Counted from the stretch's first letter, positions 1 to 12,463 are shown. The stretch is 12,463 bases of DNA from an uncultured Spirochaetota bacterium (GCA_963745235.1 CAVUXE010000078.1:1-12463), one strand, 5' to 3'. Program-made: numbers and translations. The notes: generated by a model from the sequence alone, not told the origin.

Positions 1-47
1 ATGTTAGGGTATTCCGGAAATTGTGAAAGCGTGAAATAATCTCTCTC

Positions 48-1539
48 ATGGGAGGGGGCCATAAGAAATTCTCGCGCATCGGGCGCGAGCAAATTCTCAA
101 CGCTTATCGGGCTGGGCCTGATGCCATCGTCTCGTTGATCGACTATCTGCAAGAGACGCTTTTGGGAATCATCGAAGAACACGAAGCACGGATCGAAGAG
201 CTTGAAGCGAAGCTCAACAAGGACAGCCACAACAGCGACAAGCCGCCTTCCACAGATGGACCGAAGCGAAGGTTCACCGCAAAGAATCGAGAGCGCAGTA
301 GCAAGAAACCTGGCGGTCAGGAGGGACACGAGGGCACGACGCTGCGGATGGTAAGCGATCCAGCCCAGGTGGCAGTTCATGAGGTCAAACGCTGTGGGCG
401 TTGCGGCAGATCGTTGAAGGATGTGAAGCCACGAGGCTACCTCCCACGGCAGGTTTTCGATATCCCTCGCATTACTGTGGCGGTCACCGAGCATCGAGCG
501 CAGATCAAACGCTGCCCTCACTGTGGAGAGCTTTCCCGGGGAGAGTTCCCTGAGGGGGTGACTCACACGACCCAGTATGGAACGCGCCTGAGAGCCTTTG
601 CGGTGTACCTGAAGAACTATGGATTTCTCTCCTATCAACGGACCGCCGAAGCGTTGTCAGACTTGTTCGCCATTGCTGTGAGCGCGGGGACCCTCGCCAG
701 CACAGATGGTCGCTGTGCCCAACGTCTGGAAAGGGTGGTGGAACAGATCAGAGAGAAGCTTGTTCGGGCGCCGGTGGTGCATTTCGATGAAACAGGACTG
801 AGCATCAACGGGAAGTTACACTGGCTCCATGGGGCGAGCAACCCAGCCTTTACCTATTACTTTCCCCATCAGCGTCGCGGCCAGGCAGCCACCGAATGCC
901 ATCGGGATTCTTCCGCGGCTGAAGGGCAACGCGGTCCACGACAACTGGCAGCCGTACATGAAGTACCGCTGCCGGCATTCGCTGTGTAACGCCCATCACA
1001 TTCGGGAACTCACCGGCATCTATGAACTTGACGGCCAGCCGTGGGCGCAACACATGATCGGTTTGCTTCTGGAGGGCAGCCAGGCCGTCGAGGGTGCAAA
1101 GAAGGCGGGAAAGAAACGATTGACCGCCGGTGTGTTGCACGGATACATCAGTCGCTACGAGACGATTATTGCCGCTGGAATGAAGGCCAATCCTCCTCCT
1201 ACTCGTCCAGAGGGTTGTTCACGCCGAGGACGTCTGAAGAGAAGCAAGGCCCGCAACCTCTTGGAAAGATTGGCAGAGCGCAAGAAGGAGACACTGCGCT
1301 ACTTGTACGATTTTCGAGTGCCCTTTACAAATAACCAAGCCGAGCGTGACATTCGCATGATGAGAGTGCAACAAAAGGTCTCTGGGGCATTTCGCAGCAA
1401 CGCGGGCGCTCTCGCGTTCTGCCGAATACGAAGCTACATCTCCACCATGCGCAAGCACGGCAAGTCAGTGATTGATGCCCTCATCCGAGTCTTACAGGAG
1501 GATGATCTGACGCTGACAAAGTGCCTTCAAACCAGCTGA
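48..1539 (+). CDS. tnpC: IS66-family DDE transposase (single-ORF, ISBst12-like), split by one +1 frameshift near 890-895
   Basis: ORF 48..989 has an N-terminal coiled coil, KDSHNSDKPPSTD, a Zn-ribbon (CGRC...CPHC), YGTRL and the catalytic HFDETG. ORF 829..1539 continues with AVHD, LCNAHHIREL and PFTNNQAERDIRMMRVQQKVSGAFRS, all typical IS66 TnpC motifs. Removing one base in GCC-ACCG-AAT-GCC joins them as RRGQAA(T)NAIGILP, about 496 aa. Confidence 0.93.
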
Positions 1540-1546
1540 ATAGTTA
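1535..1546 (+). repeat. IS66 right terminal inverted repeat (terminal C displaced to 3568); contains intron IBS1 TAGTTA (1541-1546)
   Basis: It overlaps the transposase stop TGA (1537-1539). The reverse complement of the reconstituted end is GTAACTATTCAGC, matching the IS66 GTAA start. Confidence 0.75.
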
Positions 1547-1754
1547 TCGCGCCAAGCAAAGCTTGGGAAAGGAGGATGCTCAGCATGTAGGCGGAAACCT
1601 TTCATCGTGACCCTGTTGGTAACCAATCCAACACAGCAAAGCTTGGCCAGCAGCTGGAAGTGAGTCTTGCGTGACCACAGGCGACTGTGGCCATGAAGCG
1701 TAGACAACGATCGTAAAAGCCGTGCGATTGAGCCTCGATAGCAGCCATGCGGGA

Positions 1755-1782
1755 GTCTTCGCAGTTAACTATGCGGGGACAG
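1755..1782 (+). other. Intron domain Id3 hairpin with EBS1 (TAACTA, 1766-1771) and putative EBS3 (G1782)
   Basis: The 9-bp stem GTCTTCGCA/TGCGGGGAC (two G-U pairs) closes the loop GTTAACTA. TAACTA is the exact reverse complement of TAGTTA (1541-1546). G1782 would pair with the first 3' exon base, C3568. Confidence 0.82.
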
Positions 1783-2159
1783 CACCGAAGCGTCGTAATG
1801 GCCCGACGTGGAGGTCCCGCCGGGGTCGGAGAACAGGGCAAATACGAATAAGGGTCACCCAGGAACTTGGGAGATCTCGTTGATTCCATGCCTTCGGAAA
1901 CTGGACGAGGGTCACCAGAGAATGAACCCCTGGCCCATGGGCAGAAGCGTCATGATGCCCATGCGGAGCGAAGAACAAAGACGCAGGCTGCAAATGGTAT
2001 TGCCGAGCGAAGGAAACGAAGCGAAGCGAAACGGTCAACGAGAAGTCGTAGCGCCTTCACAGTACCGCTGAAGCGGGGGAACCAAACCCAGCAGGAACCC
2101 CGTGGAGGGAAGGGAGGCGTCGGGTCATAGAGCTGTCGGTGGGACACACGGAGGATGCG

Positions 2160-3471
2160 ATGGAATCCACAGACGTGTCAACGAAACAACGGCGGATAAC
2201 GGAACTCGCGAGGATTCATCCCGAGGTGAGTTTCACGTCGCTGGCGCATCACATCGACCTGCGATGGCTGTACGAAGCTTACCTCCGCACGCGCAAGGAC
2301 GCGGCGGTGGGAGTGGACGGACAGACAGCCGAGGAATACGCAAAGGATCTTGGGGGTAACCTCAGGAGCCTACTGGAGAGGGCGAAAGCGGGAACGTATG
2401 TCGCTCCTCCTGTTAAGCGCGTGTATATACCGAAGGGCACGAAAGGTGAAACACGTCCGATCGGTATTACCTCCTTCGAAGACAAGGTGCTGCAACGTGC
2501 AGTGCAGATGGTGCTGGAACCGCTGTACGAGCAGGAGTTTTTGGACTGCTCGTATGGATTTCGGCCAGGGCGGTCAGCCCATGATGCGTTGCGGGCACTT
2601 CGGGACGGGCTGATGAAGATGGGTGGCGGGTGGATAATTGATCTTGACATACGAAAATTTTTCGACACTCTCGACAAAGGCCACCTTAGAGAGATCCTCA
2701 AGAGGCGGGTGTGTGACGGGGTGCTCCTTCGTCTGATCGGGAAATGGCTGAATGCTGGAGTACTGGAGGAGGGAGGGGTAAGCTACCCTGAGCGGGGGAC
2801 TCCACAGGGCGCTGTGATTTCACCAATCTTAAGCAACATCTACCTGCACGATGTGCTGGACAGATGGTTTGCAGAGGTGGTGAAGCCGCGCCTGAAGGGT
2901 GATGCGTTCCTGATTCGGTTTGCGGATGACGAGGTACTGGTGTTTGCGCGCAAAGAGGACGCCGAGCGGGTGATGGACGTGCTGCCGAAGCGATTTGGCA
3001 AATATGGCCTCACCATTCATCCCGAGAAAACTCGGTTGATATGTTTCGACAAGCCTCAGAAGCGCGAGGGAGGGACGGTTGAACCACCTCGGTGGGCGAA
3101 GTTCAATTTTCTGGGCTTCACACACTACTGGGGGCGGAGTCGATAAGGCGCGTTGGGTCGTGAAGCGAAAGACGGAACCGAGTCGCTTTACTCGGGCGCT
3201 GAAGAGTACCTGTGAGTGGTGTAGGCGTAATCGCCATCTACCGCTTAAGGATCAACAACGTATGCTCACATGGAAGCTCAACGGACACTACGCGTACTAC
3301 GGGATAACTGGAAACTCGCACTGGATCAGCAGCTTCTTCTACGAAGTCAAAAGAGCGTGGCGTAAGTGGCTCATGCGTCGCAGTCGCGGGCAATACATGC
3401 CCTGGGAGCGTTTTCTGCAACTGCTCCAGAGGTATCCACTCCCTGCAGCTCGGATAGCGCACTCTTGTTAA
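2160..3471 (+). CDS. ltrA: Group II intron reverse transcriptase/maturase, split by one +1 frameshift near 3144
   Basis: RT motifs AAVGVDG, RVYIPK...[56 protein letters not shown] and FNFLGFTH. The X/maturase domain continues in ORF 3079..3471 ([23 protein letters not shown]). Junction is CGA-T-AAG-GCG-CGT-TGG. GGAGG (2150-2154) precedes ATG 2160. No HNH domain. About 436 aa when repaired. Confidence 0.95.
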
Positions 3472-3492
3472 GCAGTGAAACTATGGCCCGAA

Positions 3493-3567
3493 GAACCGTA
3501 TGCGTCGAATCGCGCACGTACGGGTCCGTGGGGGCTCTGGGCGAGGGATCGCCCAGAGCTACCCAGC
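3493..3567 (+). ncRNA. Group II intron catalytic domain V and branch-point domain VI
   Basis: The 34-nt DV GAACCGTATGCG-TCGAATCG-CGC-AC-GTACGGGTC has the AC bulge and an AAC triad. The DVI stem GGGGCTCTGGGCGA-GGGA-TCGCCCAGAGCT-A-CCC has the bulged A at 3561. Confidence 0.95.
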
Positions 3568-3650
3568 CCTTTTTTCCTTTTCAATTCATTTATAGACTAC
3601 AGCTCGTGCGCCTACCGATGCATGCCATACTTTCAACTTCCTCCTACAGT

Positions 3651-3805
3651 CACGCGGCAGTCATCCCGTCTGTGGCCAGAAAATGCGTATGGGGTGAGGC
3701 GGCCACAAGGCCGCCGGATCGACAGCGCGCCAGCGGCTGGCGCGCTGTGCATACGCATTTTCTATTCAGCCCCAAACCATGACGGCGGGGGCGGCCGACG
3801 GCGTG
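3651..3805. repeat. Nested palindromic/structured intergenic element of unknown class
   Basis: A perfect 14-bp inverted repeat (3678-3691/3750-3763) encloses a 7-bp hairpin (3698-3715) and a 13-bp perfect palindrome (3722-3748). Imperfect outer pairings are CCGTC/GACGG and CACGC/GCGTG. Confidence 0.7.
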
Positions 3806-3866
3806 GCAAGATTCATAGCTACATTTCAGAGAGACTCGAGTTCAATCCGGTGTCTCGGACGCTAAA

Positions 3867-5000
3867 CTACTCCCACCTTTCTTCAAATGACGGATCTTTT
3901 GCCTTTGCTTCTTGAATCTTCTTTTCCCATTGCGCCTTGAGGCCTTTGTTGTTCCACAAGAGATCCACTGTTTCATACTCTTTCAATGGCTTGGCATTCT
4001 TCAGATCGATATCAACGAGATAGACTTCGATCTTCCCTTCTTTGAGCACCTCGAAGTACAACCCATCCTTGCCAAGGTAATACGAGAAGGAAACTGCTTT
4101 TTTCCCATCTGAATCGTCCATCCCATGCCAGATCGAATACAACGCGTCTTCTTTCAAATCGTAGATCAGGACATGCCAGGGATAGAGAGTTTTCGGAAGG
4201 GTGATAGTAGGATTGCTTCTAAAATTGGACATTAGAACAAAATAAACGTAATTTTGATTTGCCACAGATTGATTGCTAAATGTCAGCATGTGAGTATAGA
4301 TAGGAGAGTAGTTGCTCGTAAAGGGTAGAACAAGATCATGTGTAATGGTTTCTTGTGCCCAATCGAGAACGAATAGCTCAATATCACGATCCGCCTGTAT
4401 ATAGGAGAAATCAGATTTAGTTGCGACTGTTGATGATAGAAAAACCTGATTTGCTCCTGCGTCGACATCTTTGGGGTTCATAATGTACCCCGCCTTCGCT
4501 TTTCCGGCTGACTTAATGATTACTCCGTTGTTTTCCAGATCCAGTCGCATGCCCCCCTTGGATTCACTCTTACGTTTGGTGTAGTATCCCCAGAAATTTT
4601 CATATGCTTGCTTGCTGAGAGCTGTAACGACGTCAATCTTCTTGCTTCGCTTATCGAAAGTAATCCCTGCAATTCCTTGGGCAGAATCACTGTTACCTAA
4701 GTTTTCAAGCGTGTCAAAAAAAAACTTCGAGTCATCGTCGTTGGTAAGTCGTAGAAACTGATAATTATCCTTGAAATGATACGTATTGTACATGAACGGA
4801 TAGCGATCAGTTAGCGGAATTTCCACCAATCTCTTTGCTTCAGCAGTAAGCGAAAACAGTCTCTCCGGAAGATGAATGACTCGCGCGCCGCGAAAAAGCT
4901 CCTCGTATAAATCGGTTAGTGTTGAGGCACTTAACAACGGTCTGGCGAAGACCAAGAGCACTGAGAGCATCAAACCAATAAGGCGTCTTTTTGAACTCAC
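3867..5000 (-). CDS. Exported hypothetical protein (~377 aa, Sec signal peptide); candidate cognate immunity protein
   Basis: Long ORF (track 3867..5057). A better start is GTG at 5000, with GAGGG 7 nt upstream, giving MSSKRRLIGLMLSVLLVFARPLLSA-S (basic n-region, hydrophobic core, LSA cleavage site). It begins 37 bp after the stop of the giant gene and is visibly AT-richer than its neighbours. The immunity role is inferred from context only. Confidence 0.75.
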   Translation of the reverse strand: MSSKRRLIGLMLSVLLVFARPLLSASTLTDLYEELFRGARVIHLPERLFSLTAEAKRLVEIPLTDRYPFMYNTYHFKDNYQFLRLTNDDDSKFFFDTLENLGNSDSAQGIAGITFDKRSKKIDVVTALSKQAYENFWGYYTKRKSESKGGMRLDLENNGVIIKSAGKAKAGYIMNPKDVDAGANQVFLSSTVATKSDFSYIQADRDIELFVLDWAQETITHDLVLPFTSNYSPIYTHMLTFSNQSVANQNYVYFVLMSNFRSNPTITLPKTLYPWHVLIYDLKEDALYSIWHGMDDSDGKKAVSFSYYLGKDGLYFEVLKEGKIEVYLVDIDLKNAKPLKEYETVDLLWNNKGLKAQWEKKIQEAKAKDPSFEERWE

Positions 5001-5037
5001 TATATTTCCCTCGGCTAGATCGCTATCTCCGTTCCGC

Positions 5038-5700
5038 TTATCGTTTGGAAGATTCAATCGTCCACCAGGGCTTTACAGTCGCGAAATTGTAACCTTGGTT
5101 GAATTGTTTTTTCCAATTCGCAAAGTAGCTGCTATTGACCAACATGTTGACGTATTTGTCGTTGCCAGACAAAAGACTAGGGTCTGTCCAACTCCCAAAC
5201 GCATTCTCTCTCGGACCTGCTCCATATGTCGTCCCGCCTAGCGTCAGCCGCGGTGCACTATGTATCAGCAGGTTTTGCCCTTCATCATTGATAGCATAAA
5301 ACCCAACATGCCCCTGCATGAAGACGAGGTCTCCTACCTGAGGGGTGTCGCTCCATGTCTTTCGATCATCTCCATAGGCAAGCAACACGCCCCCCACGTA
5401 CTGGTTCGCCTGCTTCTTGTCGGCAACCATCTGAGGCCACCCGCCATATAGGAAAGTGCGACTTAGCCCATTTGCCACAATTCCCGACTCCGTGTCCAAC
5501 TGAGCAGCATGCGCTGATGCGTATTCCCTCGACCATATGCCAACCTCAGTTTTGTTGCCCTTGACACTGGCATTTAGAGCTTGCCCGGCCTTTAGGGCGC
5601 CGGACGCATACAGCACTGTGTTGACATATCCAATGCAATCCAGCGATGGGGTACTAGTCGGTGAACTAACCCATGGCCCATTGAAATACCCGGTGATCGC
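5038..5700 (-). other. C-terminal NlpC/P60-like (papain-fold) cysteine peptidase domain
   Basis: Catalytic-pattern residues: D-C (Cys codon 5635-5637), GDLVF..GHVG.Y (His 5308-5310) and IH (His 5260-5262). These match the NlpC/P60 DCSG / PGDLVF / HVGIY / IHA signature. Confidence 0.75.
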
Positions 5701-8700
5701 CTGGCCATATCCTGGGCCTTTGAGATTGAAGTTCATGTAGTACTGCGCTCCAGTCAGATCGCCGGCGATGGCCCCAGTCCTGTCGTAGTTAATATTGAGA
5801 TATTCCCCCTCGTACGTCCGCGCCACATCGTTGATCAAATACCCGTTCGCATTTCCCGCTCGTACCACGTCCTCCGATGCGAGATTCGCCAGGAATAACG
5901 CCCCTGAAAGCCCATTCATCCCGTTGCTGCCGCGGAACACGTTTGTCGTGTACTGAAGCATGTCGTGGCTGAGGATGCCTCCGGCAGCAAAGTCCGTGGA
6001 GTCCTTTAACGCATCACGCAGGCCGCCCAGCAGCGCAAACGCACTGCCATAGGCTTCTTCAGACAAAACGCCGGCAGTGAAATTGGAGAATGTACCACTG
6101 TCCCACAGAATGTCAGCTATCTTTCCTTTGTCACCTGATTGAACCAGATAATCCCAAAGCTTGTTGGATTCCGTATTCGTGCTTGTTATAGCCCGTCGCA
6201 ATTGAGTCTGCGCAAGGACCCCGAGGTCCTGTGCCGGCGTCTGGTCGTACACCCTTCCACTTGAGCTGACAGGAAGGCTAGCGATCTGCGCGTCAAGCAC
6301 AAACCCATAGCCGCCGGCCCCTATCTTGCGCAGCATGCTTGCGCCCCAGGCGAGCCCTGTATCCTCGTATCCGGCTCCAGTCACGCCCCACGCCTTCATC
6401 AAATCGGAATACGCACTGGTCTCCGTCATCCGTGATTCGAACTCATCTTTCCCTGCCAGGTGCTTGGCTTCATGAGACATGATTGATGCAACTTGCGCGG
6501 CCCCTTCTTTTCCTCCGCCAAGCAGCTTGGAGTTGACATAAATCGACTTCCCGTCATCTCCTGCATAGGCAAGCGCGGCAAGGTCCTGCGTTGTGACCGC
6601 TGGAGTGGATGCGTTATAGTAAACGACATTCTTGTTCCCGTTCCAAATATCCTCCGCCAACTGATAGTTATCTTTGTTGTCGGTGTAGCCAAGCCCATTG
6701 GCCGAGTTCAATGTCGTAAGTGCAGTCTTATCCCCCTGCAGGTTTTCATACTTCGCCTCGGTGATCTTATACGATTCGCCAACCCCGCCCATGCTCGAAG
6801 CGATTGTTCCCAAGCTGACATTCGTTCCATTACTGCCCAGGTTCATGCTGAACCCTTGCTTTGCTCCCAGGTGCATCTCCAGCAGTCCGTAACCCCTTTC
6901 GCTGCCAAAGTCAGCTATGTTCATCAGGTTCAACGTAGCGTCTCCGGTCATCCCATATTGTATACCCGTTGAGACCAGGCCTCCCGTCAGGTTGTTGAAG
7001 CTACTAATCCCTCTCGTATTGAACACATTACTGCTGAGGATGGTGCCATTCCCATCCACCATGTTCGCCATGCTCATCAGCCCGCTGGTGAACGCGCTTC
7101 CTGAGGCCCCTGCAACGCTCGCCCACGCTCCTGTCCCAAACGACCCCGTGAGGAACGCGTCCTTGTCCCACCCAAGCTTGCCGTTGCTCCAAGAGAACGC
7201 GCTGAGCGCGCTGGTGGCAGTGTTCGTCGTAAAACCTTGCGCCCCGGCCAGCAGCGCCTTCCCGATGGGCGCCTTGCCGAAATCTCCCAAGGCTCCTGCG
7301 ATCCCCCCGACCTCCTTCGGATTGAACCCGTTGAACACGCCCCCTACCGTACTCGTCGCCGCGCTCGTCAGGAAGCTCTTCCCTATATCCAGCCCTGCCT
7401 CTTCCCATGTCTTGTAGCCGCTCACCACATCCAGCGTGTCAAACAGAAGCGTGCTTGATGTGCTTATCGCGGCAGTGGCCGCGATTCCGGCAATCCCCCC
7501 GATCCCTCCCGTTGCCAGGGTCGCTACCACCCCTGCGGCTATCGATCCCACGGTTCTCAAGCTTGGGGCTTTGAACCAGCTGCCCGGTGTCGTCCCAGAG
7601 CGCCTTGTCCCACGTGGGCTTCTGCACCTCCGACCAACCCCGCGCCTCCTTCGTCTGATTCCAGATGAAAGCGCCCATCAGGCGCCCCAATTCCCCCTTG
7701 CCCTGCACAACTATGTTGTCGTTCTGAGACTTGTCGAAGTCAGGTTCGTTGGCGAACTCTGGCGAATACCCCACCCACTGCCCAAACTCCCCCTCCCCCA
7801 GCTCCTTGGTCTTCGCCTCTCCGTTTGCTGTGATTTCGAACACAAGCCCCTTGGCCCTCTTCTCTGCGTCCGTGAGCTTCTTCCCTTCCCCGAAGATCCT
7901 ATTCTGCTGCTCCCCGACTTCCTCCTGCGCTATGCCGACAAGATCCATCACCGCCCCGGCCTCGAGACCGTTCAGCCTCCCCTGGCTCAAATCCACTTTC
8001 AGCTCCAGCCTCGGCATCGCATACCACCGGTACGCCTCTACCCGCTGCGTCTCCATTATGAGACCGCTGATGAGCGTGCTCCGTTTCACTGCCTCCCGCT
8101 TGTACTCTCCTCCGCCCGTCCCGTACCCAACGGTGACAAACACCTCATCCATGCTCTTCTCAAAGCCTTTGTTCGCTTCCTTCACACTCTCAGAAAGCGC
8201 CTTCTTCGCTTCCTCCACGCTCGTTCGGGCATCATCTGCCAACCCCCGAGCCGCCAACGCCGAGAGCTCCTTCCTGCTTGTTGCGATAAAGCGCTTCACC
8301 TCGCTGGCAATCCGCGCGCCACTGGTGTCCGCTCCCAGTTTCCCGCTGGCCACCGTCACCGACTCTGGCGCAATCCCCGAGCTCATCCGCTTCAGCGCCG
8401 TAAGTGACTGTCCGCTCCCTACTTCCGCAAGGAGCGTCTGAACCTTCGTTGTGGCCTCCTTCGGGTCATAACTTATGTCCCCGATCAAAAGCGTGCTCGC
8501 GCTTCGCGAACTGTCATCCGCGCTTGCACCCACCTCGCCGAGAATGGCCTCATTGCCTGCCTTGGCTGCCTTCTCCCGCGTGGCTTGCACCCAATCATCC
8601 TTCTTCTCCACGAGGCCAAGGTAGGCAACGTTCCACGCATCACTCTTGTCGCAATATTCCTGCTGGAAGCCCTCCCGCCACTGTCCAAACGCTTCGAGCA

Positions 8701-11700
8701 GCTTTTGCTGGCTTTCATCCCAGGCGCTGGCCGCCTTGGCCCGAACAAGACCAACTTGTGCGTACCAGGTCTGTTGGCGGCTGCCGAGGTCCTGCACGGA
8801 TTGACCCCACTTTTGCTCCAACTCCGTCTCGCGGGATTTGAGCGCTCCTGAATAAACAGAAAGTACGGCCTGGGCATAGCTTTGAAGCGCGTTCATCCTG
8901 GTGTTGGACTCGGAGTCGTTGAGCAGTACGCCAGCAGAGAATGCAGCGTCACCAAGGACGCCGGACAGGAGCTCTTGGTCAGCCTTTGCGACCCACAGTG
9001 AATCCCTATAGGCACTCTTTGCAGCTGCCAACATGTCAGCTTTCGTCCCGGTCCCCGCGACATAAGCCTCGTAGGCGGATCGATAGGCTTGCTGCGCATC
9101 CGCTGCCTTCGCCTCCGCTGCCTGAGCTGCGAGTACGGTCTTCCCACGAGCGTCTTCAGCATTCACACTTGCCACAACAGTCATCTCTTGCAGCGCTTTG
9201 CTGAAGGACACCTTGTCTTCCGCCGCGAGCACACTCCATGCCGAGCGGAATTGGGCCTCCAGCTCGGAGGAGACCCTCGCCAGGTCGGTTGCAATGCCCT
9301 GGCTCTGGGCGGCTAATTTTCGATACTGCGACAGGAAGTCCTCCACGGAAGTCAAATGAGCCCCGTCAGTCCCTCTCAGCTCGGCAAGCCGTGCGCAACC
9401 GGACTCGTAGTCACGCCTTGCCTGGGTGAACGTTGATATTGAGCTTCCAAGGATGTTTGGAGAAAAGCCATTCAGGAGGGTTTCAATGTCCCCCTTCTTG
9501 TTGTCAAGGGCACTTGCTTGCCCGGTCCAATCCGCGACAGCGTCCGAAATCCAGCCGAATGGAGCACGGCGGTTGGCGCGAAGCCTCTCTATGGTATCCT
9601 GCAACCTCTGCGTAAGCATTCGCAAGGCTGAAGCGCTTGTTCGGGAATTGAACTGGTCAAACTGATTTTCGTTTCCGCCAGCGCTCGCTATGCGGACTGC
9701 AAAATAGAACTCGAATGCGTCCCTTTCATCGGCGTTCTCCATTACTGCCGAGTATTGAGACTGGGCGAATGTCACTGCGGCTCTCAGACAGTCGCGGGCG
9801 GCGCCTCTGAGATCCTCACCGCTGGTGTGGATGTCCAGGTAGTTGTTGTCTCGCATGAATTTGTCGTCACTTTGATAATTTTCGAGATAGCCCAGCGACC
9901 CGCTCCCGTTGCTGTCATACAGCCGCCGCTTGAGGTAATCTGCAGCAAAGCCCCAGCGGTCAATCAGTGCGCTCATGCCGCCGAACTTCGCGGCATAGGT
10001 GTTCACAGTTGTCTGCCATGCTTCCATCTGGCGCTCGAAGTCACTCTTTGCGGCGGCCTCCGCGGGATCCCCGCCCTGAGCTTCTCGGACGTCGAAATAG
10101 TCCTTGACGGTCTGCCACTCATCCTTGGTCTGCTGCGCGTGCAACTTGAAATCGACGGAAATGTCCAACGATAGCCGACCATTCTGGAAAGTCAAATAGC
10201 TGGTCCAGTTGCCTGCTCTTTCTGTTTCGTCATCCGACCATGTGAGGTTTGCATCCACCCGGGACCCGTCAAGAATTGCATCCCTCGCTTTCTGGAGCGA
10301 CTCGAACTGTTCTTCGACCTTTTTCCCCTGTTCCGTGGTTGCCTCATCCAATTCGCCGGTGACTCGCTTCAACCGCAACAGCTCGGCATAGCTCGTTTTC
10401 CATGCGTCATATGCGGCCAGAGTGGCTGCGTCACCAATCGGTCTGTCCGTGACAGGTGACTCGCCGTACAGTTCTTTCAGCGCATCCACCGCCGCTGCGG
10501 CACGAGTGAGCTTCTCGGAAACATCTGTCTGCATCTGCACGGGGCTCTGGTAGCTTTGGGCCGCTTCTCCCCGCGAGGTCAGGTAGCCGTTTGAAGCCCA
10601 GTCTTGTATCTCCTCACTGACCCGAAGCATGAAGCGCGCTTTCTCCAGGCTTTCCGAAGATATCTGCAATTCAGCGTAGGCAGTGTTATAGAGGGCTCCT
10701 TGTCCCTCGAAGTCCCCCAGCGCCGTATCAACCAAGACCTGCTTGTTTGCCACCTTTATTGCAAGATTATCCGCGCTGTTCCTCAGCTCATCCAACTCTG
10801 CCTGGCGCTCTTCACTACCCAGGTCCAGGAACTTCAAGGCTTCTCCGAAGCGGCGTATGTCATCCTTCAGCGACTGCACCTTGGCAAGCTCAGAGCGATA
10901 TGCGCCCTCCGCCGCGTTCACTTCCTGCTCGCTCGACACCGGCAGGTCGCTCGCCTTGGCATTCCCGGCCGCGAAGGCCTCCAGGAATGAACGAAATCGG
11001 GCCACGGAACCGCCATCATCCCTGGTTGCCGCAAGCTGACTCACGAAAGCATTTTCCTGTTGCGCGAGGGAGTTGAACGCATCAAGGGTGACATTCTCTG
11101 CGGAATCCGAAACGCATTGGACATAACCGTTCCCGTCCCGTGTCTGAGCGCTGGTTGCGCTTTCCACAGTCACCGAAGTTCCGACGTTTCCGGTCAGGTA
11201 CACGCGCCAAGAGGTGGCCTGGCTGGGTTGCCGTTCCACCTGACGCCAATAGGACGCTTCGGCTGAATGGACAGCCGACTTGCTGCTAAAATCCACGGAC
11301 GCCAGCGCAAGCTCTTCCAGGATCATCTGCCCTGCAGCGTCAAGCTTCGAAGCATTCATCTGATCGTACCAGCTCAGGTAGTCGGCGTTCGAGCCTGCAG
11401 CAAAAAGATCATCATTCCATTGTCCGGCGGAAATTGAGGCCGCGAGTGCGTCTCGAGACATGAAGTCCCCGCCCAGAGACTGCGCGTAGGCTTGGGCGTT
11501 TCCGTCCAAGGCAGCGACATATCCCCGGACCTTCCCCAGCATTTCCTTGAACTGATTCACTTTCTCAGTAGCGGCTGAGCTCTTGGCAAGTTGTTTTTCG
11601 AGGTCTTCAGGAATCGAAACGCCTCGCAGAACAAGGTTCTTGCACAAGTACTCGACTGCGAGGTCTCCGCTTCCTGAGAAAGCGGTTTGCTCCAGTTGAG

Positions 11701-12463
11701 ACGCTGTGCCCGCGAAATCAGCTGCGTCTGCTACGCCGGTTATCCCCGTCCGATCCAGCAGGAAACTCGCGAGCTGCCCGGCCTGATACAGCGCCACTGG
11801 ATTGCGAGGCGACTGTCAGAGCGATTGCTCGTTGGTAGACCGGTCCCGCAGCTCCCATGGCTGCGAGCGATGACAGACGAGCATCAAAGTCACTTCCAAA
11901 CAAGAATCTGCGGAAAAGGGCATCCCGATCGTCAAGACCATACGCCAACTGCGAGCAGAGCTGCTTGATCTGATCCGATGCGGGACTGCTTTCGCTGAAA
12001 CTTGCAAGGTAGCCGGCGAGGGCTTCGCTCAATAGCTGTTGGCTGGACCAGGTCTTCGAAGCAACTTCGTCCCAAAGTCTCTTCACGTCGGCGGCAAAGG
12101 AGCTCACAGCGAGTCCCGCGATTGCCTGAGACACACTGAGGGTGCTCCAGGTTCGAAAAGCGGCGACCCGCTCGCCTGTTGGTCCTTGACCCTTTTGGGC
12201 ATCAAGCAGTTTCTGAGCTTCAGCAGCGATCTCACTCGCAAGCATGGTTGTCATTCCAGGCGCGAGATCGGCGGCGATGCTCTGAAGGGAAATCGAAGGA
12301 TCAGCAAGCGATCTCTTTGCAGCCTCAATAGCCCCTGAGTCGACGATGAGATCATGGGCGGACGCAGCCGAAGCGGACGGCTTGTCGTTTCGAGTGTACA
12401 ACTCCATGAGCGCCGAAAGGCGGGATCCCCCTTGGAGCTCCTCCGCCAGCGTTCGAAGGTTTG
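5038..12463 (-). CDS. Giant protein (partial, at least ~2470 aa, two +1 frameshifts at ~11795-11810 and ~7584); putative polymorphic toxin with HExxH motif and C-terminal NlpC/P60-like peptidase
   Basis: ORFs 11718..12407, 7439..11797 and 5038..7560 overlap end to end. The first frame stays open to the window edge (NLRTLAEELQGGSRLSALM). Deleting one C of CCC at 7583-7585 gives LWDDTGSWFKAPSLRTVGSIAAG. The body is Ala/Glu/Gln-rich and helical. The C-terminus has LDCIGYVNTVL...PQVGDLVFMQGHVGFY...LIHSAP. Confidence 0.8.
6420..6560 (-). other. Zincin-like metallopeptidase motif within the giant protein
   Basis: SIYVNSKLL strand, then helix AAQVASIMSHEAKH (HExxH at 6460-6474), then DEFESR providing a candidate third ligand Glu. 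Confidence 0.6.

Follow-up and report, generated by a model that had tools for sequence, protein, structure and literature searches.

The 12,463-nucleotide stretch of DNA analysed here (the window), from an uncultured Spirochaetota bacterium (GCA_963745235.1 CAVUXE010000078.1:1-12463), carries a group II intron inserted between the 13th and 14th bases of the right terminal inverted repeat of an IS66-family insertion sequence (IS), in the same sense as the transposase gene and 7 nt past its stop codon. The explanation that we favour, with a probability of roughly 70%, is that of a mobile group II intron which homes to the tip of the IS66 repeat by base pairing and was reverse-spliced into a resident IS; a second, independent IS tip, belonging to a paralogous element (IS-B) in a sister genome, is occupied at the same base. 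The position of the intron, one base from the end of the IS, had been proposed from inspection of the sequence by itself (the sequence-only reading) and was confirmed by matches to Rfam, by a maturase profile, by an empty site, by the left junction of the IS and by the ends of IS-B, and excision of the intron joins ...GCTGAATAGTTA to C, exactly as that reading had stated. The features of the intron and of its host element (IS-A) are collected in Table 1.

Table 1. Features of the intron-bearing IS in the window, with positions counted from its first base
Feature	Position	Strand	Description	Evidence
IS-A, single-ORF (open reading frame) IS66-family element	1-1546	+	Corresponds to positions 29-1574 of ~1575 nt; the contig begins 28 nt inside the element
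IS66-family transposase gene	48-1539	+	Split into frames 48-989 and 829-1539 by an extra base near 895; TGA at 1537-1539
Right terminal inverted repeat, first 13 of 14 nt (AGCTGAATAGTTA)	1534-1546	+	Contains intron-binding site 2 (IBS2) GCTG, 1535-1538, and IBS1 TAGTTA, 1541-1546
Group II intron	1547-3567	+	2021 nt; 5' UCGCGCC, 3' ...CUACCCAGC	Three copies with the same ends and different flanks; Rfam
Domain I core	1623-1835	+	RF02005 (group-II-D1D4-6)	139.6 bits against a gathering score of 49
Candidate exon-binding site 2 (EBS2), CAGC	1742-1745	+	In variable loop 1738-1748; another register, UAGC 1740-1743, also pairs	Pairing with GCUG at -12 to -9
EBS1, UAACUA	1766-1771	+	Loop of hairpin 1760-1775	Pairs 6/6 with 1541-1546
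EBS3, G	1828	+	Located in GGGGUC-G-GAGA	Pairs with C3568
Reverse transcriptase/maturase, endonuclease domain absent	2139-3471	+	Broken in this copy by TAA 3144-3146 and an extra T at 3153
Domain V	3493-3526	+	AAC (3494-3496) in place of the usual catalytic triad AGC	RF00029 alignment
Domain VI	3529-3567	+	Bulged branch A 3561; intron end G3566-C3567	RF00029 alignment, 3' ends of homologues
Terminal C of the right repeat (IBS3)	3568	+		IS-B duplications put the C within the element; C follows the intron in 4/4 copies
Right copy of the 8-bp target duplication CTTTTTTC	3569-3576	+		Left copy abuts the IS-A left end in contig C39; one copy at contig C95

In addition to the domain I core, the region of domains V and VI (DV and DVI) was matched by RF00029 at 3491-3567 with 38.7 bits (E 1.7e-5), slightly below the gathering score of 40, and the same region is conserved among the 3' ends of homologues. 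The intron's own genome (G000; 104 contigs, 85.74% complete and 5.87% contaminated) contains three full copies, namely that of the window (contig C78) and those at C22 129018-131037 and C44 59933-61951, both of the latter with 99.8% identity to the window copy. The ends TCGCGCC...CCCAGC are exactly common to all three, beyond which the flanks differ, and the three copies are distinguished at only five alignment columns, every one of them within the intron ORF, so that the ribozyme parts are identical. Because the three copies share their ends and intron-free ends of IS-B could be compared, the ends of the intron are fixed. These ends depart from the usual form in two respects. A 2015 review, in the parts available, gives the boundaries as GU-AY and the DV triad as AGC or CGC (PMC4424553). 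The present intron begins with 5' UCGCG, in place of GUGYG, and ends with ...AGC, and its triad is AAC with a G on the opposite strand.

The host element IS-A, presumably a member of the group named ISBst12-like (single-ORF IS66), encodes a transposase in which the Pfam domains DUF6444, zf-IS66 and DDE_Tnp_IS66 were found. The two halves of its ORF match NF033517 at profile positions 1-197 and 196-385 with 151 and 149 bits, each falling below the cut-off of 180 bits because the gene is split. Window positions 1-33 match C5 11533-11565, and the left end of IS-A lies at C5 11505; this end (GTATCTATTCAGCT) agrees at 13 of 14 positions with the inverted right end GTAACTATTCAGCT and begins with 5'-GTA, as expected of IS66 elements. 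The paralogous IS-B is 69% identical to IS-A, measures 1601 nt and is present in at least seven copies in the same genome. All seven IS-B right ends examined read ...CAGCTGAACAGTTAC and then continue into unrelated sequence, the intron-free tip being ...AGCTGAACAGTTAC, and thus intron-free IS ends lie where the sequence-only reading had expected them, directly after the C. The 8-bp duplications around IS-B, CTTTTTCC (C34), AAAGCGTG (C5) and AACTTAGC (sister genome G007), likewise leave the final C inside the element, and the base preceding the left copy at the C34 and C5 junctions is T or G, never C. A 9-bp duplication, CCTTTTTTC, with an IS ending in ...GTTA, had been considered because the empty site happens to have a C before the duplication, and was rejected on account of the G or T found in that position at the IS-B junctions.

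The sequence-only reading had also predicted a left repeat preceded by the same 8-bp duplication, and this junction was found at the end of C39, which reads ...CACGATTTCCTC CTTTTTTC followed by GTATCTATTCAGCTAAAAT, a 13/14 match to the inverted right tip. Contig C95 represents the empty site with a single CTTTTTTC: it has 97.8-99% identity to the C39 flank and 98.4% to window positions 3568-4013, and its matches to the two flanks overlap on that one CTTTTTTC. The left junction in C39 and the empty site in C95 together establish that IS-A, intron and C are bracketed by the 8-bp duplication: the IS was inserted first and the intron second. As a separate matter, the comparison of C95 4002-4900 with C39 and with window positions 3568-4013 reveals that filled and empty alleles of the IS-A site coexist in the assembly at 98-99% identity, a sign either that the bin mixes strains or that this region is duplicated in it. 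We also noted a nested arrangement at C5 11505-13967, where an inverted IS-B (C5 11566-13167; duplication AAAGCGTG) has landed within another copy of IS-A; the right end of this IS-A copy was sought via its expected duplication, with no match.

The recognition of the target by base pairing was then assessed against homologous introns and their flanks. The assignment of EBS1 made in the sequence-only reading is borne out by the 6/6 pairing and by covariation. In a set of 28 distinct homologue/flank pairs, the columns that best pair with exon positions -1 to -4 are 1766-1769, with paired fractions of 0.96, 0.89, 0.93 and 0.89 and 4-5 types of pair; the scan missed positions -5 and -6, probably because loop lengths vary. 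The same reading had placed EBS3 at G1782, which we rejected because this G is invariant in 10/10 aligned homologues despite their differing +1 bases. The sole column that pairs with +1 in 8/8 introns is G1828, with Watson-Crick pairs throughout (G-C four times, U-A twice and C-G twice). For EBS2, the CAGC originally suggested is plausible, in that it lies in the variable loop in which complementarity to exon positions -16 to -7 falls in homologues, although the signal rises only weakly above mismatched controls (mean helix of 4.56 bp in 27 cognate loop/exon pairs as compared with 3.90 bp in 676 mismatched pairs). EBS2 probably lies in this loop, and the CAGC register is kept as a candidate.

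The use of sites in the own genome is consistent with a contribution from the EBS2 side. Among its TAGTTAC sites, 31 are intact, one of them with CTG at -11 to -9, and two are occupied with a visible 5' flank, both with CTG; sites with CTG are therefore occupied in two of three cases and those without it in 0 of 30 (hypergeometric probability 3/528, calculated by hand). Downstream of the insertion point, each of the four copies has its own bases at +2 to +5 (CTTT, AACT, ATCG and AGAA), so that there is no conservation past +1 among the four sites. All paired exon bases (-12 to -9, -6 to -1 and +1) fall within the 14-nt tip of the repeat. The IS-A tip is the best paired of the known sites, with EBS2 4/4, EBS1 6/6 and EBS3 paired; the corresponding values are 4/4, 5/6 and +1 paired at the IS-B tip, and 3/4, 6/6 and +1 paired at the C44 site.

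In the sister genome G007, a matching intron (100% identity as listed) occupies the same base of IS-B, and AACTTAGC flanks IS-B, intron and C as a unit. The junction of the window is itself reproduced in a contig from another run (X5, record 23), which bridges positions 1510-2229. A contig from run X1 (record 6; 2655 nt) carries the intron (2600-1534) followed by opposite-strand IS-A sequence (84-148, 306-341 and 555 onward), an arrangement which suggests insertion in the left repeat of a diverged relative of IS-A. The tip itself is widespread: 15 of the 61 related genomes, representing 7 of 24 genera, contain the 14-mer AGCTGAA[TC]AGTTAC at a total of 42 places, as compared with one place for the reversed control. 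Five such loci in relatives share almost no DNA with the body of IS-A (one 63-nt match), and some of them are left ends with a perfect target; the tip is therefore conserved across diverged elements, and an identification of these loci as IS-A copies was rejected for the same lack of similarity. Within the own genome, 18 of the 20 sites of the form CTG-NN-[CT]AGTTA/C, intact or occupied (the stroke marking the insertion point), are IS-like repeat tips, made up of 17 intact tips and the occupied IS-A end. One perfect tip, GTAACTATTCAGCT, stands unoccupied at C32 766-779; tblastn matched the IS-B transposase nowhere on that contig, and the tip may stand alone or terminate some other element.

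A number of observations weigh against the tip as the homing site. The copy in C44 lies in sense within the last codons of an ordinary gene of 532 aa with a weak acyltransferase-type (AAT) domain, at a site that shares CTG-NN-TAGTTA/C; the copy in C22 has no 5' flank, as the contig ends there, and lies 36 nt beyond a convergent HNH/DUF222 gene, its partner end having been sought among all listed IS flanks without success. A relative with the same EBS1, whose first 300 bases show 88% identity, adjoins a caspase-domain gene outside any IS. Occupancy is also low: the junction is present in only two genomes, the 61 relatives hold 42 intact tips as against two occupied, all 16 IS-B ends and the solo tip of C32 are empty in the own genome, and of 72 loci with the first 25 bases of the intron in two public collections just one has an IS66 tip flank, which, having the same junction as G007, was counted with it as one event. 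For insertion at a left end the evidence comes from one contig, in which 13 nt of tip adjoin the joint, under our bridging rule of 31 nt; the IEP (intron-encoded protein) and the transposase both read as broken in the window copy; and splicing, mobility and transposition were not observed.

The proposal that the intron recognizes the IS66 end consequently stands in part. Two IS species are hit at the same base and the pairing is best at the tip, although one of the three own copies lies in an ordinary gene. The flanks of copies and homologues, a tabulation of which the sequence-only reading had called for, place the G007 copy at the IS-B tip, and the C44 copy and the same-EBS1 relative outside an IS. 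As to its suggestion that both ends of the IS are potential targets, right repeats are occupied in two genomes, and only one contig hints at an insertion in a left repeat. Since one own copy is in an ordinary gene and another is without a 5' flank, the tip would be a preferred target and not an exclusive one, and the repeat tip is most likely the cognate homing site of the intron, though not the only site used.

The mechanism that we envisage involves a IIB-like ribozyme of the RF02005 type and an endonuclease-less IEP. Reverse splicing into DNA would have brought the intron into an IS66-family element that was in place beforehand, with EBS2 pairing to GCUG at -12 to -9, EBS1 to UAGUUA at -6 to -1 and EBS3 (G1828) to the C at +1, such that the guide sequences would read the last 13 bases of the repeat together with its terminal C. 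Because the recognized bases all lie within the conserved tip, the target would be independent of the DNA flanking the IS, and because the repeats are inverted, the left end would offer the same target on the other strand. The transposase ORF is left uninterrupted by the intron, as the sequence-only reading had pointed out, the insertion being downstream of the stop codon; the transposase could hence be produced with no need of splicing, and the intron might be transcribed by read-through from the transposase sense strand. Retrohoming would presumably occur at replication forks, as in other endonuclease-less introns.

An unlikely alternative, but one with several facts in its favour, is that a relaxed intron lands at any CUG-NN-UAGUUA/C and strikes repeat tips because they are the commonest carriers of this motif, with no adaptation to the IS and with its true homing site elsewhere or lost. 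The ordinary-gene copy with its 3/4, 6/6 and +1 pairing, the same-EBS1 relative outside any IS, the low occupancy of tips and the free retargeting of homologues through EBS1 changes would all be accommodated by such opportunism. Preferential homing accounts better for the IS-A tip being the best-paired site of all, and for two IS species of 69% identity, probably along with a left end, having been hit at exactly the same base; and because 18 of the 20 motif sites in the own genome are IS-like tips, the motif is in practice the tip. A chimeric assembly, or an IS that was inserted beside a resident intron, is by contrast highly improbable. The assembly is certainly fragmented, with 104 contigs and breaks at these very repeats, yet the same type of junction recurs in G007, with its own duplication around IS, intron and C, and in the X5 contig. 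The reverse order is contradicted by the fact that CTTTTTTC flanks the composite and that the empty site is without both parts; with the IS as the later arrival, the right-hand copy of its duplication should separate IS and intron.

What the insertion does to the IS is a separate question from homing. In the strand that is transferred by a DDE transposase, the final base of the repeat, C3568, would be the one at the 3' terminus, although the mechanism of IS66 elements is poorly known, and such transposases are usually sensitive to terminal bases. With the terminal C moved ~2 kb away and a T in its place, that IS end would be crippled, and hence the IS; on this analysis we put loss of function of the intron-bearing end, and with it immobilization of the IS, at about even odds. 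It is possible, if somewhat short of an even chance, that the intron does home to the tip and is simply a passenger there, the transposase binding inner repeat bases and either cleaving at the old distance or using the intact end, and the intron gaining read-through transcription and a multicopy, horizontally moving target. None of the data demonstrate a loss of IS mobility, and in contigs from runs X3 and X5 intron and C are followed by a flank (GATCGATAAAG...) different from that of the window, the IS-A right-end junction also being present in X5; occupied IS copies could therefore exist at more than one locus. Against this, a different copy of the intron may be the source of the flank in X3 and X5, a T stands where the transferred strand should have its terminal base, which now lies 2 kb away, and no intron-free IS-A or IS-B end reading ...GTTAT occurs among the ends listed. 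The most far-reaching version of the homing explanation, in which an endonuclease-less intron lineage with an altered ribozyme (AAC, U1 and penultimate G) is tuned from -12 to +1 to the tip of diverged IS66 elements, caps either end of any family member, detaches the single base bearing the transferred 3' end and so acts on the DNA to silence an IS whose gene it spares, is, taken as a whole, rather doubtful.

The IEP of the window copy is disrupted, as listed in Table 1, but the C22 copy encodes an intact protein of 443 aa which scores 329.9 bits against TIGR04416 (cut-off 300), also matches RVT_1 and lacks an HNH domain; the C44 copy has one T fewer in a T-run. In contigs from runs X1, X3 and X5 (three studies), the A at 3144, the G at 3149 and one base fewer at 3153 give an intact IEP, and one base fewer at 895 in the X3 and X5 contigs gives an intact transposase. 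The defects of the window copy fall in short homopolymer contexts, and may be private mutations or, as three other runs carry intact versions, assembly errors. The RNA run X20 yielded only small pieces of related introns, which were uninformative as to splicing and transcription. Among annotated IEPs, the nearest are encoded on plasmids of Halomonas (57% identity) and Bradyrhizobium/Rhizobium (52-54%), adjoining IS21 genes, and the protein is ~45% identical to the reverse transcriptase of a Sinorhizobium plasmid intron which we take to be RmInt1-like. RF02005 is matched by all three plasmid relatives examined (Halomonas, Bradyrhizobium and Sinorhizobium). The C-terminus of the IEP, compared by eye, does not fit the class D motif LX3AX3PXLF[V/A]HW, and its reverse transcriptase motif is FADD, that of one homologue being YADD; FADD is said to mark variety g2 (PMC3552965). 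Judged by its plasmid relatives and its Rfam family, the intron would be placed only near the RmInt1-type and Halomonas-type introns.

Homologues of the intron were found in 20 of the 61 relatives, and of 29 recovered 5' ends 24 read TCGCGCC, one TTGCGCC and four GTGCGCC. Their targets vary with EBS1 and comprise genes, intergenic sites, a repeated motif and an IS200-linked site. The repeated motif, a GCGGATAAGCG-type target, recurs at different loci in Terriglobia/Acidobacteria records; many close relatives (L039, L041, L044, L049, L050, L059, L062, L063, L087, L091 and others, from Terriglobia/Acidobacteria and soil metagenomes) stand after GCGGATA(A/G)GC..., which may be a repeated extragenic element. 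A sister lineage, comprising three relatives and one further locus from a collection (L045, L007, L017 and L029), ~85% identical over the first bases, is inserted after ...GGCTTTAGC or ...GGTTTAGC with a matching EBS1 (GCUAAAG), probably in three events, because L045 and L007 share a flank. The L045 site follows an IS200-type Y1 transposase gene at a distance of 27 nt and adjoins a hairpin; it is another IS end used as a target.

The unusual ends of the intron are accompanied by a change in its catalytic core. Introns of the UCGCG type end in ...G-A or ...G-C, and all those with a recognizable DV carry GAACCG...CGGG(U/A/C)C, whereas four GUGCG-type or RmInt1-like relatives have GAGCCG...CGGAUC (AGC) and those 3' ends that could be read are ...AC. 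The first and penultimate bases change jointly, from G...A in the relatives to U...G here. The association of 5' UC, penultimate G and the DV triad AAC (opposite G) was seen in the window copy and in L003, L008, L009, L010, L011, L014, L025, L026 and L033, the relatives compared for AGC (opposite A) being L013, L015, L117 and L118. The set looks like a compensated active-site variant, and near-identical multicopy insertions at EBS-matched sites argue that ribozymes of the UCGCG type work.

Several other loci were noted during this survey. In L022 (G059:C1, ~1581-7556), three intron copies stand head to tail (...CCCGGA/TCGCGCC...) behind one 5' exon; an occupied site could be re-invaded because the EBS3 G may pair with the first intron base U (G-U), as described for the intron RmInt2 discussed below. 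In L012 (G026:C390, 348 onward) the flanking DNA is palindromic, with ...TTGTACAACACGTA before the intron and CGTGTTGTAC... after it, but this palindrome may not mark a true target because the 3' boundary was picked by motif with no recognizable DV upstream and is probably false. At G008:C11 120277-122867 an intron homologue is split near its base 826 by ~1.2 kb of other DNA. In the window itself, the spacer to the right of the IS contains a nested inverted repeat (3678-3763; outer arms of 14 nt, 100% complementary, and inner arms of 20 nt, 85% complementary), and the minus strand at 3867-12461 holds four consecutive long ORFs (396, 840, 1452 and 247+ aa) with no Pfam match at E 0.001.

The nearest functional precedent is RmInt2 of Sinorhizobium meliloti GR4. 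In the available sections of its description, all seven copies lie in the inverted repeats of ISRm17, both repeats are used and retrohoming was shown, mismatches in EBS2 are tolerated, head-to-tail copies arise through pairing of EBS3 with the intron's own first base, the ORF belongs to class D with the motif given above, and the minimal target extends from -16 to +7 (PMC4615759); ISRm17 is named as an ISNCY-family element in what is accessible of a further source (PMC10194956). The present intron resembles RmInt2 in its use of IS inverted repeats as targets, in relaxed EBS2 pairing, and in the head-to-tail array of its relative in G059. It differs in that its host is of the IS66 family and not ISNCY, its IEP does not fit the class D motif, its sites are not conserved past +1, one of its three own copies is in a gene, and its boundaries are UC...GC instead of GU...AY.

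Introns that live in IS elements are also exemplified by RmInt1 in ISRm2011-2 and by Sr.md.I1 in the ORF of an IS66 transposase (portions of PMC4615759 and PMC5894124), and the accessible portion of the latter, a review, states that insertion of RmInt1 blocks the spread of ISRm2011-2 and discusses control of IS spread by introns. Because these two introns interrupt the transposase reading frame, the block they impose depends on poor splicing, whereas here the ORF is untouched and it is the DNA end that is interrupted. Class C (IIC) introns recognize a stem-loop motif, with a short EBS1 and no EBS2. Like the IIC introns at terminators and attC sites, as covered in the available parts of PMC4424553, the present intron uses a repeated non-coding DNA motif as its target, but it does so with an RF02005-type ribozyme that has EBS1, EBS3 and probably EBS2 and reads its target by base pairing. 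The RmInt1-like relative that was examined gives the same RF02005 match. The introns on plasmids of Halomonas sp. PA16-9 (H1) and Bradyrhizobium japonicum (H15), which encode the closest annotated IEPs (57% and 52%), share the Rfam domain I family and a similar IEP tail and both adjoin IS21-family genes; their 5' ends are GUGCG and UUGCG, and in the Halomonas intron the DV triad reads AGC and the 3' terminus ...GAC, unlike the UCGCG and AAC found here.

In the accessible parts of the literature on group II introns with IS66 or on terminal inverted repeats, we found no report of an intron in an IS66 repeat, which is not proof of absence. The concept of introns in IS repeats is already in print, as the available parts of PMC4615759 and PMC5894124 make plain. 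What appears to be new here is the IS family, the host lineage, a recognition site contained entirely in the 14-nt tip, and the unusual ribozyme (5' UCGCG, 3' G-C/G-A and AAC). If confirmed as active, precise multicopy introns in which the 5' UC, the penultimate G and AAC co-vary would be of interest for ribozyme studies. The unusually clean geometry, with a target that coincides with the repeat tip and a single terminal base severed from it, sharpens the question of whether a group II intron can inactivate an IS through its DNA alone, the gene being left as it was, and whether this shapes the copy number of an IS in natural populations. Set beside RmInt2, the intron described here would represent a second, phylogenetically remote case in which DNA transposon ends serve a retroelement as landing sites.

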